Shown here: positions 297 to 32,412 of the stretch, piece by piece | Numbering within the stretch: the first letter of the stretch is position 1 | Layout of the letters: each line of letters begins with the position of its first letter | IMG/VR virus record: IMGVR_UViG_3300023174_003073 | Coordinates: 32,001-96,000 of that record | Length of the DNA stretch: 64,000 bases | Strand: one strand, 5' to 3' | DNA from: a virus | Notes under the pieces: model-generated | Databases searched by the model: none | Told to the model about the DNA's origin: nothing | The model's input: the letters and a program-made list of their open reading frames with translations, nothing else | Translations under genes and position numbers: made by a program

Positions 297-620
297 TTAA
301 ACTGAGAAGGAACTTCCACAGCCGCATGTACTAGATGCTGTGGGGTTTTTAATCCTAAATTCCGACCCCATTAGTTCCTCAACATAGTCAACCTCTACTC
401 CCTGAAGATATTGAGCCGACATTACGTCAACCAGGACCCTTGAGGAACCTGCTGAAAATTCAAGGTCATCTTCACTTTTACTGTCATCTAACATGAATCC
501 ATAACTAAACCCCGAACATCCCCCACCCTGCACAAACATGCGTAATTTTAAGTCAGGATTGTTCTCTTCCGCAATAATATCTGCTATTTTGATACTTGCT
601 GATTCTGTAATTGTTATCAT
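297..620 (-). CDS. erpA: Fe-S cluster insertion protein ErpA (HesB/IscA family)
   Basis: [17 protein letters not shown] and C-terminal TCGCGSSF. Confidence 0.9.
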
Positions 621-940
621 ACTCTAAAACTTTCTCCGCATCCACAGCGGTCACGTTCATTGGGGTTTATAAACTCAAACCCCTCATTTAATCCTTTTTT
701 AACATAATCTATAGTCATTCCTTCTAAGTATACATTATGTTTTTTATCTACTATTACACAAAAGTTAGGTTGGGCATAATTGATAGTAGTAGAATCATCA
801 ATATATTCGTCAATATATTCTAATACATAGGCAAGACCGCTACAACCGGTTGTTTTTACCCCTAGTTTTATTCCTGCATAGCCTTTGAGTTCAGTTAATT
901 TTTGTATCTTATCTTTGGCCTGTGGAGTAACTGATATCAT
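617..940 (-). CDS. iscA: Fe-S cluster assembly protein IscA
   Basis: [31 protein letters not shown]. Confidence 0.9.
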
Positions 941-3051
941 AGTACGGCTAAATATTCTTTAAATTTTTTATGACGCTGTTTTACAACATTCGTTGGTTCA
1001 TTGGCATTGATAGCCTTTACAACTTCAGTAGTGTTATTGAAGTTACTAACATTAGGTCTTACTTGATTCTTCCAAAACCATAATGCAATCTTAGCACCAA
1101 CATCTAACCTACTTGCTAATTCAGGATTCTTTACTAATCTATCATCACCAAATATTTGCTGACTTGCTCTGGTATAGTTGTCACGTCCGGTCAACTGAAT
1201 AAAACCACGACCCTTAAATAGTTCCCCATCACCTTTGACTTTATTACCTAATCGTTTTGCTAGTCTAGATTTTTCGTATTTAGCAAATTGTTTTTTACTG
1301 CCCACTTCTTTCATCTTAGAGAAGTCCCAGCTTTCATGTCTAGTCTGTGCCATGAATTGTGCTAGTTCTGAGCCTTTGAGTCCTGCAGCCTTGGCAGCAG
1401 TTTGTAATGCCGCTTCTGCATCACTGTTGTTACTTAGTAATGTAACACCTTCATCTTCTTTGTCATGTGAGAACTTTGGTATCATTGATGAGATTTTATC
1501 TTTCAATGACGGCTCCGGCTTTGCAACTTTAGCAGGCTCTTGCTTAAGAGTAGGCTTTACAGTTGCAGGCATTTTACTAATAGGTTTAGAATAATCAGGT
1601 ACTAGAACTTTTTGTCCTATTTCTAACTTAGTGTTGCGATCCATCTTGTTTAGTTTGTATATCTCTTTTGGATCTGCACCCGTCTGTCTTGCTATACTAT
1701 AAATTGTATCACCTGGTTCAACTATTTGATGAACCATTTGAGGACCTTTAGCCTGAGCACCCATTGCCATAGCACCTGCCATAGCACCTGTTGCTAGTGC
1801 AGATCTCCAATCTTCTTCTAAATCATCTTCCATTATACCAGCAATGCCAGTACCAATACCTGCACTTGCTAGTGTATACTTAATTGTGTCACTCCAACTC
1901 TTTCCATTGATTCTAGACACTACAGTTGGAATCACGGTATTCAATATTGCTTGCAATGCCAAGTTAGTTTGTGCAGGAGTCAATCCCATTTTCTGTGCTG
2001 AACTTAATACACCACCGGCAAGTAATGCACCGATTGTTGTAACAACACCACCTTGAACATATGGGCTTTGTTTTGCTTGTTTAAAAATATCTAGTATCTT
2101 TGATTTGACGGTGGGGTCACTGACCTGACTTAACATCTCTTTTGCAGTACCAACATAGTTGTCAACTGGTTCTTTGCTGATATGTCCGGCATGTTGATAG
2201 AAATCTAATATTGCATTTGCTATTGGATCTTTTAATTTGTCATCACCTTCCGCCACACCTTGCTTTATCCTAGACAATTCGTATATAACTATGTCACCGT
2301 TGTCGGCACGGAAAGCCCTATATCCTAACGCTTTGGAATAACGTTGTACAAGTCTATCGTACAATTTAGCACGGCTTTCTGGATTTGGTTGAGGCTGGTC
2401 AGGCTCATAATATATTGTTGGATCAGTTGCTTTACTAGCTGAGAAACTTAGTTTTTGTGGTTTGTATTTTTTGATGTATTTTTGTATGGCATCCAACACC
2501 GTGGCAAAAATTCGTTGTGCATCGCCCTCGCCTGTGACTTCTTGGCTGTTGTTTCTATAAAACTCAACTTGTACAACTTCTTCACCTTCGTCACCTTGTT
2601 GATTGTTGAACATGATACTTAGATTAGTGCCATCTGGTAATTTTGTGTTTAGGTCAACGTCACCGTAATCGCTTTTCTCCCACTTACCCTTATAAGGATT
2701 GTCAAAGGCTTCCCAAATACGAACATCTTCTCCACGATGTTTATTCCAAAAGCCTGCACCTGCATCAGTTTGGTCATAGCTACGATGTATCTCGTAACCT
2801 TTGCTTTTTGCATAATCATACATTATTCTAGCAATACCTTGACCTTGGTATCTTTCATCAACTTTTAAGTCTTGTGGATCTAGTTCATTGTTGTCGCCAA
2901 TATTAAAGGCAACAGAACCCAATATATTATTACCCCAATCATCAAGTGCATTGATGACTAATACATGACCATTCTTAACCATCTCAATGGTCATGCCCTC
3001 AAAATCTTCTCGGGTTGTTTTGGCTTCTGTGATAAATTCATATGCTCTCAT
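937..3051 (-). CDS. Multi-domain putative virion-internal protein: GNAT acetyltransferase, unknown domains, LysM, GH19 lysozyme/chitinase
   Basis: N-term MRAYEFITE; YQGQGIA acetyl-CoA motif; VEPGDTIYSIA...LEIGQKVLVP LysM; HES...FKGRGFIQLTGRDNY GH19. Confidence 0.75.
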   Translation of the reverse strand: MRAYEFITEAKTTREDFEGMTIEMVKNGHVLVINALDDWGNNILGSVAFNIGDNNELDPQDLKVDERYQGQGIARIMYDYAKSKGYEIHRSYDQTDAGAGFWNKHRGEDVRIWEAFDNPYKGKWEKSDYGDVDLNTKLPDGTNLSIMFNNQQGDEGEEVVQVEFYRNNSQEVTGEGDAQRIFATVLDAIQKYIKKYKPQKLSFSASKATDPTIYYEPDQPQPNPESRAKLYDRLVQRYSKALGYRAFRADNGDIVIYELSRIKQGVAEGDDKLKDPIANAILDFYQHAGHISKEPVDNYVGTAKEMLSQVSDPTVKSKILDIFKQAKQSPYVQGGVVTTIGALLAGGVLSSAQKMGLTPAQTNLALQAILNTVIPTVVSRINGKSWSDTIKYTLASAGIGTGIAGIMEDDLEEDWRSALATGAMAGAMAMGAQAKGPQMVHQIVEPGDTIYSIARQTGADPKEIYKLNKMDRNTKLEIGQKVLVPDYSKPISKMPATVKPTLKQEPAKVAKPEPSLKDKISSMIPKFSHDKEDEGVTLLSNNSDAEAALQTAAKAAGLKGSELAQFMAQTRHESWDFSKMKEVGSKKQFAKYEKSRLAKRLGNKVKGDGELFKGRGFIQLTGRDNYTRASQQIFGDDRLVKNPELASRLDVGAKIALWFWKNQVRPNVSNFNNTTEVVKAINANEPTNVVKQRHKKFKEYLAVL

Positions 3052-3599
3052 AAATTCTTACCCCAGCGTGTATTGATATGACTCCAGTTCATTATCTTCC
3101 AAGTATTTTCTAAGTATTCTTTTTTATTAGGACCGTAGTCTAAAAAATATGCATGTTCCCACCAGTCAACTAATATAAGAATATCGTCACGAACCTCGTG
3201 GTTTGCAATAGTCTTTATCTCACCGTCATAACTCATGTAAATCCAACCACTACCTTGTATCTTCATGGCTTCTTGTTTGAATTGTTCTTTAAAATCTCTC
3301 CACCAAGTATACTTGCGTTTAATGATTCCTAACACAGGTCCGTTGGGTGTGTTATCTTCTTGTATCTTACGAAATTGACTGAAATAAATGTTGTGCAGGA
3401 AAGCCCCTGCATAGTTGAAATCTTTATCACCTTCACCCTTGTTGTATCGGGTAGCGTATCCATGGGCTAAATCCCCATAGTGATAATCCATTGTCTTTTT
3501 ACTAAGTACTGGATTTAGGCTGGAAAGGTCGTAGGATAGATTGTCTATCTCTAGCTTTTTTGTGCGGGATTCGTTGATTCTCTCTACAATGTCATACAT
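3048..3599 (-). CDS. Fe/Mn superoxide dismutase family protein
   Basis: GSGW and DWWEHAY motifs; metal-ligand His in MDYHY and FLHN; start moved to ATG 3599, just after a TAAATA motif. Confidence 0.85.
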   Translation of the reverse strand: MYDIVERINESRTKKLEIDNLSYDLSSLNPVLSKKTMDYHYGDLAHGYATRYNKGEGDKDFNYAGAFLHNIYFSQFRKIQEDNTPNGPVLGIIKRKYTWWRDFKEQFKQEAMKIQGSGWIYMSYDGEIKTIANHEVRDDILILVDWWEHAYFLDYGPNKKEYLENTWKIMNWSHINTRWGKNL

Positions 3600-3639
3600 A
3601 GTAGAGTATTTATCGCAACTTAGACTTGTGTTAGCCATT

Positions 3640-3665
3640 AAAAAAGAGCCCCGAAAGGCTCTTTT
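3640..3665 (-). terminator. Intrinsic terminator (bidirectional-looking)
   Basis: AAAAGAGCC-loop-GGCTCTTTT hairpin with U tract. Confidence 0.8.
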
Positions 3666-3667
3666 AC

Positions 3668-3715
3668 TTAGAAAAATCTATTAAACCAGCGTTTAATGCC
3701 GGAGATTAGTTTCCC
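3668..3715 (-). other. Candidate -1 programmed frameshift site GGGAAAC and 13-codon extension LISGIKRWFNRFF
   Basis: TTG GGA AAC TAA; hairpin begins 6 nt downstream; -1 frame open to TAA at 3668-3670, directly before the terminator. Confidence 0.65.
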
Positions 3716-4353
3716 AATAAGCTGTCTAATTTAGAATCAACTGCATTCAAACGTGCCTCAATTGCATCTAATGCTGGGTCAGCAGGTGTGGCTACTGCAT
3801 CAGCAATTTGTTGTTGTACTTCTGGAGTAACTGCATCAACACCTGTTGCTGTTGCAACTACTTCAGCTACTGCGGCAACTACTTCAGCTACTGCCTCTGG
3901 AGCCGGAGCTGGCATATCAGCAACTGCTTCTACGATAGCGGCTGTCATTGCTACTGGATCTAATACAATTTGTGGCTCTGCTGTAACAACTGCAACAACA
4001 GCGGCTGTAACCATATCAGCAACTTCAGGATTGATAATAGCATCTGCTTCATGTAGATCAGCAACCACATCTGTTACTATAGCGGCTGCTTCTGGGATAT
4101 CAGCACTTGGGGAAAATACGATTACATCTTCAACTGCTACTGGAGCTTCATCTGCTGGAGAATAAACAATAGCGTCAATATGACTTTCAGTTTTTGCAGT
4201 CATCATATGGTCGATGTGTGCTTCAACTACTGATAATCTTGCATCTAATTCTTCAATGCTTGTGGCATTGTCTGTGTTAACTGATGTTCCAGTTAGTGTT
4301 GCTAATTTGGCTTCAACAGCTACCAATCTTACTGCTAGGTCTTCTAATCTCAT
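3706..4353 (-). CDS. Acidic Ala/Val/Pro-rich protein with terminal coiled-coil heptads
   Basis: LEDLAVRLVAVEAKL, IEELDARLSVVEAHI and LDAIEARLNAVDSKLDSLL heptads; own TAAATA promoter, SD and terminator. Confidence 0.8.
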   Translation of the reverse strand: MRLEDLAVRLVAVEAKLATLTGTSVNTDNATSIEELDARLSVVEAHIDHMMTAKTESHIDAIVYSPADEAPVAVEDVIVFSPSADIPEAAAIVTDVVADLHEADAIINPEVADMVTAAVVAVVTAEPQIVLDPVAMTAAIVEAVADMPAPAPEAVAEVVAAVAEVVATATGVDAVTPEVQQQIADAVATPADPALDAIEARLNAVDSKLDSLLGN

Positions 4354-4446
4354 GGGAATTTCCTTTAAGGTTTTTATCTGTGTGTGTCACCATGACACAT
4401 AAGTATTTAATTACTATTCCATGAATATTGCGTGACAAGTAGAGTA

Positions 4447-6096: not shown

Positions 6097-6114
6097 ATTA
6101 CAGTATTGTTACAA
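6097..6114 (-). promoter_or_regulatory. Pho-box-like direct repeat
   Basis: TTGTAAC-AATA-CTGTAAT (7-4-7), 10-11 nt upstream of the ATAAAT/TAAATA element before plcP. Confidence 0.5.
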
Positions 6115-31556: not shown

Positions 31557-32412
31557 CGGCTCTATCTATTGATTCTGTATGTGCGGCACATTCTGGGCAG
31601 ATACCTTCTTTGTAACAATCGTTTTCTACACCACTCCAACCACATTCAGTACATTGGATAGTATGTGTCATTAGTTCATCAAACTCACGTTTGAGTTCTT
31701 CTAATGCCTCTTCTAGGTCTGCTTGTGATACAGTATCATCTTCTTCACGACTATCAAACATTACCCAACCATCTTGACATGTAGGGCAAAAGAGTTGTCC
31801 ATTCAATTCAGGAAGTTCGCTTTCTTTGTGCATTGCCTCACAACTGAAACAAGGAACTTCTTCTTCATTGTCTTTGGCTTCTTGTGCCCAACGTGCCTCA
31901 CGTTCTTTATTTTCTAGTTCTTCTTTAATACCAACTTCTGTTAGTTCAGTATCACTATCACACATTGGACAAATATCTTTATCACTATGTGATTCTTCTT
32001 CTGAATTGAAATAATCTTCAATTACAGTACCATCTTCACGTAGATATGCTGTGCGAGTTTCATAACTACGACCAGTCCAACGACACTTGGTGCATTTATG
32101 CGATGGTTCAGGTTCCTTATGTGGGGTGTGCCAACTATCTTCATCACCTAATTCATAAGTAACTTCATAGCCACCTTTACGGTCAGTCCACCAATCATCA
32201 TATTGGCGATCCCATTCTAGTTCAACATCATTTTCCCAGGCATCATTGACAATTTCTTCAACGTCAATTTCACCTTCTTCAATTTGTTTAAGTTTTTCAA
32301 CAATTTCATCTTCATCCAAATCAGGATAGATTTCGCTTAGAGTACTTTCATCAAGTTCAAGTGCAAATTGACTATCAACTGAATGCCATTCGTGTTTAAC
32401 TAAAGTTACCAT
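31549..32412 (-). CDS. Acidic protein with three zinc-ribbon (CxxC pair) modules
   Basis: CTKC/CPMC, CFSC/CPTC, CTEC/CPEC. Confidence 0.7.
   Translation of the reverse strand: MVTLVKHEWHSVDSQFALELDESTLSEIYPDLDEDEIVEKLKQIEEGEIDVEEIVNDAWENDVELEWDRQYDDWWTDRKGGYEVTYELGDEDSWHTPHKEPEPSHKCTKCRWTGRSYETRTAYLREDGTVIEDYFNSEEESHSDKDICPMCDSDTELTEVGIKEELENKEREARWAQEAKDNEEEVPCFSCEAMHKESELPELNGQLFCPTCQDGWVMFDSREEDDTVSQADLEEALEELKREFDELMTHTIQCTECGWSGVENDCYKEGICPECAAHTESIDRADE

Follow-up and report, generated by a model that had tools for sequence, protein, structure and literature searches.

A conserved candidate -1 frameshift site that probably adds a basic amphipathic helix to an acidic protein of large T4-like phages

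The stretch of viral DNA analyzed here (“the window”), which comprises 64,000 nucleotides at positions 32,001 to 96,000 of the IMG/VR record IMGVR_UViG_3300023174_003073, carries on its minus strand a gene for an acidic protein of 215 amino acids which very probably yields two proteins from one mRNA. Most ribosomes would terminate at the TAA stop codon of the gene and release the acidic helical protein, while a fraction would slip back by one base and read 13 more codons (11-20 in relatives), which would produce the same protein with a basic, aromatic, amphipathic helix at its C-terminus. The comparison of this gene with its relatives argues strongly that a conserved programmed -1 frameshift is real, and the combined reading, in which the gene is decoded in two ways and the longer product is anchored to a membrane, is considered likely as a whole.

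To our knowledge, few phage frameshifts have been documented beyond those of tail-chaperone and capsid genes. The frameshift described in the present work, which is conserved over about 90 distinct sequences and is accompanied by natural losses that provide controls, is a new example of a known recoding mechanism with an unusual payload: a single helix with membrane-anchor chemistry rather than an extra domain. Since the payload is a single helix, the slip rate could set the ratio of the soluble to the membrane-bound form of one protein. The whole cassette is small (about 50 nucleotides, nt). Since gene callers end all family members at the stop codon, no database contains the long isoform.

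The slip site and the frame beyond the stop codon

The last codons of the open reading frame (ORF) are AGC TTA TTG GGA AAC TAA, so that a “slippery” heptamer of the form X XXY YYZ directly abuts the stop codon. After a slip the ribosome would continue with CTA ATC TCC ... TTC TAA and would add LISGIKRWFNRFF behind the terminal G and K/N, with an expected junction in the window copy of ...SLLGN-LISGIK.... An earlier sequence-only reading of the window had described the ORF, the heptamer, the -1 frame, a downstream hairpin and a terminator, and every one of these elements is present where it had been placed (Table 1). The -1 frame of the window copy is blocked 5 codons upstream, and a start codon is absent.

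The window copy alone is within the expectation of chance and is weak evidence by itself. In the long ORFs of the window, in-frame X XXY YYZ heptamers make up 0.44% of codons and at least 13 open -1 codons follow the stop in 58% of cases; a heptamer located directly at the stop is found in 1 of the 73 long ORFs, which is the ORF considered here. Because one copy is compatible with chance, the question is decided by comparison with relatives. A scan of the whole 171-kb viral record to which the window belongs did not find a second terminal heptamer with a comparable extension. The 3' end cannot be attributed to an assembly error, since the independent contig L071 carries an identical one. A second natural sample (L072) encodes an identical zero-frame protein with an extension that begins LIFGIK... 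where the window has LISGIK..., a conservative-to-hydrophobic change on the apolar side.

The comparison set consists of 149 related loci, which reduce to 93 distinct 3' ends. The heptamer G GGA AAN occurs in 68 of these ends and G GGG AAG in 16, and a -1 extension of at least 11 codons is present in all 68 and in all 16. Among the 9 other ends the extension is shorter than 11 codons in 4, and of the remaining 5 only 1 fits the amphipathic motif described below. The sequence-only reading had exposed itself to homologs that lack the heptamer or have stops in the -1 frame; the slip motif is instead found directly 5' of the stop in 84 of the 93 distinct ends, and all 84 retain an open extension of 11-20 codons. 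The association between slip motif and extension over the 93 ends is strong (Fisher p = 4e-5). When the proteins are grouped at 80% identity, the motif is present in 17 of 21 clusters, including members that are only about 45-55% identical to the window protein (L052, L055, L063, L067).

The extensions are related to one another in a manner that points to translation. One amphipathic pattern fits 80 of the 84 extensions that follow a slip site: hydrophobic residues occupy positions 1, 2, 5, 8, 9, 12 and 13 (most often V/L/I, I, I/V/F, W, F, L/F and F, respectively), and the residues between them are Lys, Arg or Gln. At the hydrophobic sites the second codon position is a near-invariant T and the first and third positions are variable, a pattern which reads as the signature of coding in the -1 frame. 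The slip site itself also appears to be kept at synonymous sites beyond the requirement of the protein. Codon use in 42 distinct ends was compared with that in the remainder of these genes: GGA serves as the final Gly codon in 32 ends and GGG in 6 (38 of 42 together, compared to 20% and 2% elsewhere, or 22% together), and the Leu codon that precedes it ends in G in 38 of 42, compared to 22% elsewhere.

These observations bear directly on the possibility that no recoding takes place, in which case LLG(K/N) would be a requirement of the protein and the downstream conservation would be that of hairpins and terminators in the 3' untranslated region (UTR). The hairpins are real and conserved, LLGK is retained in copies without the slip site, and a single sequence is, as stated above, unremarkable. 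A 3' UTR, however, would not avoid -1 stops in 84 of 84 ends while the +1 frame is mostly shut within 2-9 codons, nor would it retain NTN codons at positions 1, 2, 5, 8, 9, 12 and 13 while the hairpin shifts in register and sequence, and the synonymous bias at the last three codons would be left unexplained. The absence of recoding is thus regarded as very improbable.

The ends that have lost the slip motif are informative in the same respect. Seven of the 9 still encode a terminal LLGK, and in 4 of these 7 the extension is gone or truncated; the corresponding codons are no longer slippery (TTA GGC AAG in L033, TTA GGT AAG in L133, and TTA GGG AAG in L021/L138, with a TGA in the former extension). 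The extension is also gone from L060, which ends in LFTN, and it is a decayed remnant in L050 and L051, which end in TTG GGC AAG. Codons which relax to GGC, GGT or TTA where the extension is gone act, as far as sequence comparison can tell, as natural controls for the slip site. The most divergent members of the family (L068, L069, L070) lack the cassette.

In most loci the -1 frame is shut 2-3 codons upstream and contains no ATG, GTG or TTG, and the first -1 codon is GTA, ATA, CTA or CTG in 81 of 84 ends and ATG or GTG in 3. Since the frame is shut upstream and has no start codon, the peptide can be reached only by a shift within a window of a few codons. It is conceivable that the -1 ORF is a separate amphipathic micropeptide of 13-20 amino acids, translated by re-initiation at an overlapping near-cognate codon, and the 3 ends with ATGA or GTGA show the classic overlap of translational coupling; the second -1 codon, moreover, almost always specifies Ile or Val. 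A canonical start is nonetheless absent in or before the extension at the 81 other ends, and re-initiation explains neither the retention of GGA/GGG and of the G-ending Leu codon nor their relaxation exactly upon loss of the extension, which makes a micropeptide quite improbable. A natural in-frame fusion of both frames was not found among the 93 ends and the homologs inspected, an absence that fits a need for both isoforms. Homologs of 224-230 amino acids were considered as C-terminal fusions and rejected, their length being due to miscalled N-terminal starts.

A hairpin of -5 kcal/mol or lower, starting 0-10 nt past the heptamer, is predicted for 78 of the 84 slip-site ends. The stems vary in both sequence and register (CCAGCG/CGCUGG, CCAACGC/GCGUUGG, AAUCCAA/UUGGAUU, and also stems of 9-12 bp further 3'). 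Among individual loci, L008 and L026, which have G GGA AAG, form strong hairpins; L002 is an example with G GGG AAG. The real sequences fold with -10.1 kcal/mol compared to -5.4 kcal/mol for synonymous recodings of the same peptide, with p <= 0.05 in 17 of 32 cases, and in one hairpin register pairing is maintained in 90.6% of cells compared to 26-40% in slid controls. Rfam contains no family that matches the 3' region or the conserved downstream hairpin.

Loci with an extension of 18 amino acids carry a second conserved hairpin, CGGRCAC - AARATAGNG - GUGYCG followed by CUGGA... (at L004:3686-3745, and likewise in L002, L005, L006, L011, L012, L020, L035-L037 and L043-L048), in the loop of which the TAG stop of the -1 frame is located. 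A variant of it is present in L007, L008, L014 and L015, and the version in the L007/L008 group, GGGCCC/GGGAUC, covaries.

The mechanism would probably be tandem slippage, in which the P-site tRNA-Gly re-pairs from GGA to GGG and the A-site tRNA-Asn or tRNA-Lys from AAC/AAG to AAA. The slip may alternatively take place after one further step, when AAN has reached the P site and the A site is occupied by the stop codon, which is decoded slowly; this would give the same product. The hairpin, 4-9 nt downstream, and the adjoining stop codon would probably boost the slip rate. In E. coli, ribosomes shift very readily at G_GGA_AAG, and -1 shifting is also known for G_GGA_AAC (PMC5009743). Among the tRNAs encoded by the phage are Gly(UCC), Lys(UUU) and Lys(CUU); a tRNA for Asn is absent among the 21 tRNA genes (G000:C1:113-12165) of the 171-kb record, which is estimated to be 43% complete. 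Two other routes to a longer product were rejected: transcriptional slippage, because the site offers runs of 3 G and 3 A only, and readthrough of the stop codon, because more zero-frame stops follow right after the first.

Several observations weigh against a frameshift at this site. The G GGG AAG of 16 ends is an imperfect X XXY YYZ heptamer, at which re-pairing of the A-site tRNA requires a G-U pair at the first position. In L142 and L146 an extension is present behind A GGG AAR, where slippage is expected to be poor, and this is unexplained. Covariation within one hairpin register is modest, with double changes at 2 pairs and scores as high in 42 of 500 shuffles, and the hairpin of the window is among the weakest (p = 0.19 against the recodings). 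The window slip site uses AAC where most relatives have AAG; in E. coli, from which the actual host may differ, AAC (Asn) promotes shifting less than AAG does (PMC5009743).

Two IscA/HesB-like iron-sulfur (Fe-S) assembly genes lie just downstream of the frameshift gene (window 297-940), as does a gene for an Fe/Mn superoxide dismutase (3048-3638). In 2012 Maynard and colleagues reportedly connected frameshifting at the lambda G GGA AAG site with the Fe-S and tRNA-Lys thiolation pathways of the host; the nearness of the Fe-S genes to the frameshift gene is probably a coincidence.

Table 1. Positions in the window of the features of the frameshift gene and its flanks
Feature	Position	Strand	Remarks
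Degenerate Pho-box-like direct repeat TGTCAC-N5-ATTCAT	4421..4437	-	2 mismatches to TGTMAY-N5-TGTMAY; 11 nt 5' of TAAATA
TAAATA late-promoter-like core	4404..4409	-	Kept 5' of the gene in relatives
5'-UTR hairpin UGUGUCA-UGG-UGACACA	4383..4399	-	Equivalent place occupied in relatives by different stems
Zero-frame ORF, product of normal termination	3706..4353	-	215 amino acids; >440 homologs; all-helical AlphaFold2 model
Slippery heptamer G GGA AAC	3709..3715	-	TAA stop (3706-3708) immediately 3'
-1-frame extension LISGIKRWFNRFF	3668..3709	-	13 codons + TAA at 3668-3670; hydrophobic moment (muH) 0.82, net charge +3
Candidate stimulatory hairpin CCGGC/GCUGG	3686..3702	-	5 bp; 6-nt spacer after heptamer; weak (-6.4 kcal/mol, z = -1.5)
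Intrinsic terminator 3' of extension	3640..3665	-	10-bp stem, -12.7 kcal/mol, then U run

The proposed C-terminal helix and the body of the protein

The chemistry of the added tail was evaluated on its 13-residue core in 23 lineages. The mean muH is 0.64, the mean hydrophobicity 0.74 and the mean net charge +2.2, with ranges across the lineages of 0.5-0.8 for muH and +1 to +4 for charge, and the amphipathicity exceeds that of 95% of shuffles in 18 of the 23. A HeliQuest-type discriminant for lipid binding is greater than 1.34 in 11 of the 23 lineages and falls in the “possible” band of 0.68-1.34 in 10; its value for the window tail is 1.76. The basic and aromatic amphipathic helix that the sequence-only reading had proposed for the -1 frame is thus borne out by the hydrophobic moment, the charge and the conserved pattern.

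MinD and FtsA end in short C-terminal membrane-targeting helices which present Lys and Arg on one face and Phe, Trp, Leu and Ile on the other, and the tail described here shares this chemistry, a comparison that implies no homology. That the added helix is a lipid-binding membrane anchor of the MinD/FtsA type appears somewhat more probable than that it is not; what tells against this assignment is that it derives from sequence chemistry. Physical chemistry suggests that the helix would most likely lie in-plane at the inner membrane, on its cytoplasmic side, in which case a constant fraction of the acidic protein would be tethered at the membrane and the rest would be soluble.

The protein to which the helix would be attached has an isoelectric point of about 4.05, with 38 Asp and Glu residues compared to 7 Lys and Arg. 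It has more than 440 close homologs, and in a set of 1.84 billion representatives the family falls into 36 clusters at 50% identity. Databases of cultured phages contain no match to its DNA or protein, and searches of Pfam, PHROGs and NCBIfam returned nothing significant for the 215-residue protein; the names “YqiC” and “MtrG” that JGI attaches to some homologs are probably coiled-coil noise. From an alignment of 19 sequences AlphaFold2 predicts an all-helical protein with a mean predicted local distance difference test score (pLDDT) of 84, in a set of five models that spanned 58 to 84, and a predicted template modelling score (pTM) of 0.73. Searches with the 215-residue model found no match at E <= 0.001 in the PDB and BFVD with Foldseek, and nothing above a template modelling score of 0.42 in a fold search of the ESM Atlas. 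The best hit of a wide VIA-align search, to a DUF3571 protein at Z 6.9, is inside the noise range for helical bundles, and a feature search of the ESM Atlas returned only the protein's own viral clusters. Homodimer prediction, run without controls, gave interaction prediction scores from aligned errors (ipSAE) of 0.37, 0.00 and 0.00, which are silent either way on oligomerization.

The sequence-only reading had compared the layout of the protein to that of PopZ, with coiled-coil ends around a disordered, acidic, Pro/Ala-rich linker, and had suggested that it could form a membrane-tethered polymer or condensate. The acidic composition is indeed rich in Ala, Val and Pro, the terminal helices resemble each other, are coiled-coil-like and are the most conserved parts of the protein, and the central region accepts a beta-rich insert of about 95 residues (the 312-residue forms), a duplication in L063 and, in P0157 (107 residues), a deletion. 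The middle is nonetheless predicted by AlphaFold2 to consist of packed helices (residues ~85-190 at pLDDT 81-91), the centre is well conserved with many invariant columns, unlike a disordered linker, and no match to PopZ or another family was found. A PopZ-like scaffold is therefore improbable, and none of the analyses that were run lends support to a polymer or condensate.

The insert of the 312-residue forms (L038, L050, L051; P0053, P0091, P0123) is located in the loop after an MPAP/DAPLP motif and contains a single invariant Cys together with a number of Trp and Tyr residues. These forms are modelled moderately (pLDDT 70), and the weak matches of the insert, at Z 5-6.3, to beta-domains of phage baseplates and tails and to others were judged uninterpretable. 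Three of the 312-residue forms, L050, L051 and P0123, have non-slippery ends (GGC AAG, or LLGQ). In a further homolog (P0135, 247 residues) the N-terminal region of EF-Ts is joined to the C-terminal two-thirds of the acidic-protein family; this could reflect a chimera formed during assembly or an error in gene calling instead of a true fusion.

Promoter, neighbouring genes and possible role

Besides its tRNA genes, the 171-kb record carries genes for a T4-type DNA polymerase, a ligase and DnaK. Related contigs have lengths of 330-350 kb, and a gp23-type major capsid gene is present in some relatives. As judged from these sequences, the source viruses are large T4-like phages, and the sample set looks like lake metagenomes. 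The sequence TAAATA is found no more than 90 nt upstream of 53 of the 192 ORFs of the record, compared to about 9 expected, and is not present upstream of the DNA polymerase, ligase and DnaK genes, a pattern that fits a late promoter of the T4 type. The acidic-protein gene has such a TAAATA, in agreement with the earlier suggestion that it is a late gene. Its own 5' parts include, in addition, a ribosome-binding site and, between this site and TAAATA, a conserved 5'-UTR hairpin with stems that vary among relatives (GUGUCA/UGACAC, as in the window, GUGCCA/UGGCAC and GUACCA/GGUAC); this hairpin may be an mRNA-stabilizing or regulatory element.

Upstream of TAAATA, 23 of 35 related loci carry a Pho-box-like repeat, TGTMAY-N5-TGTMAY, with at most one mismatch. 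The gap between the repeat and TAAATA is exactly 11 nt in all 23, against a background of 0.007 occurrences per 130 nt. The more degenerate copy of the window preserves this geometry, and a perfect repeat, TGTAAC-AATAC-TGTAAT, is located at window 6097-6113, 5' of a phosphoesterase gene and likewise 11 nt from TAAATA.

The neighbours of the acidic-protein gene in the window encode a glycosyltransferase, a phosphoesterase and the superoxide dismutase mentioned above. Most loci combine the gene, in an order that changes between them, with genes for an LpxH-like metallophosphoesterase and for a glycosyltransferase of family GT2 or GT4. In L002, L003 and L059 the glycosyltransferase gene that separates the phosphoesterase gene from the family gene is of the GT4 instead of the GT2 type, and a GT4-like gene lies upstream in L021; in L003 a gene for a PstS-like phosphate-binding protein follows right after the family gene (neighbour-gene coordinates in relatives are L003:3773-4792, L003:1930-2934, L016:2-1348 and L025:9-1043). 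The acidic protein appears to evolve faster than these enzymes, with identities of 54-68% compared to about 80-90% for its enzyme neighbours.

In the bacterial PlcP-Agt pathway of lipid renovation, PlcP together with Agt glycosyltransferases swaps phospholipids for glycolipids under low phosphate (PMC9804370). The loci described here resemble this pathway in the pairing of an LpxH-like metallophosphoesterase with a GT2 or GT4 enzyme and in the presence of PstS in one locus, and differ from it in that no accessory protein of this kind has been described for the pathway. The assignment of the phage enzymes to PlcP and Agt is putative; their LpxH model scores fall below the cut-off, and a literature search found no paper on a phage plcP.

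Because of the promoter and the neighbouring enzymes, a membrane role in phosphate-stress lipid remodelling, exercised together with the lipid module, is the preferred guess, although a tentative one. A more specific version, which is offered with still more reserve, is that the protein is a late protein of giant freshwater phages under the control of phosphate stress, that frameshifting sets its distribution in the cell, and that the slipped form, by means of an in-plane anchor, tethers the acidic, fast-evolving helical domain to the inner membrane beside the PlcP-like and glycosyltransferase enzymes. If this is true, the gene, which sits in a putative phosphate-stress and lipid-remodelling island, would be a new accessory component of virus-driven lipid renovation by enzymes that strip phosphorus from host phospholipids, and a defined membrane-tethered partner would give a handle on the action of these abundant lake phages on host membranes.

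The frameshift could also be real and the helix dock onto protein rather than lipid, its partner being the surface of the capsid or prohead, the enzymes encoded next to it, or the acidic body of the same protein, for which it would serve as an autoinhibitory or oligomerizing clasp. In L016 and L025 the family gene has gp23 on one side and a tail-tube-like gene on the other, with genes for UvsY and ferredoxin behind them, a cyanophage-like order. This neighbourhood weighs against a membrane role, and a virion-related role therefore retains some plausibility; known C-terminal frameshift extensions of phages, such as those of T7 10B and of the A2 head proteins, end up in virions, and a helix of charge +2 to +4 could fold back onto a body of net charge -31. 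On the other side, conserved Trp and Phe alternating with Lys and Arg over 13 residues are typical of in-plane membrane anchors, the gene is accompanied in most loci not by head or tail genes but by genes for enzymes that have lipid-acting proteins as their closest named relatives, and no tie of fold or family to virion proteins was found. Docking onto protein is accordingly considered unlikely, and a membrane anchor remains the favoured destination of the helix.

Comparison with known recoding events

The proposed frameshift has a close parallel in the G/GT tail-assembly-chaperone pair of phage lambda, with which it shares the class of heptamer (G GGA AAG) and the output of a single late phage mRNA as two proteins at a set ratio. 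It differs from G/GT in gene family and genomic position, and in that the slip site abuts the stop codon and the extension is a single helix of 13-20 amino acids, not a domain. The features of a lambda-type chaperone gene are likewise not found: the gene is not located between tail tube and tape measure genes, and it has no PHROG or Pfam match to chaperone families.

Slips of -1 near the end of a gene are known from gene 10A/10B of T7 and from the head proteins of the Lactobacillus phage A2, and in the cdd gene of Bacillus subtilis a slip at CGA AAG adds 13 residues. The cdd slip is listed as reference B18 in PMC5009743. As in the present case, these slips occur a few codons before the stop and add a short C-terminal tail. 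Their tails, in contrast to the one described here, are not basic and amphipathic with membrane-anchor chemistry, and their carriers are capsid proteins or a deaminase.

A literature search found no paper that ties frameshifting to an amphipathic membrane-targeting tail in phages. Recoding which gives part of a protein pool another, membrane-associated tail is known from 6K/TF of alphaviruses and nsp2TF of arteriviruses; unlike the system considered here, these belong to eukaryotic RNA viruses, their segments are transmembrane or palmitoylated, and their stimulators are of other kinds. In MinD and FtsA, finally, the targeting helix is encoded in the main frame and is present on every molecule, whereas in the acidic protein described in the present work only the frameshifted molecules would carry it.

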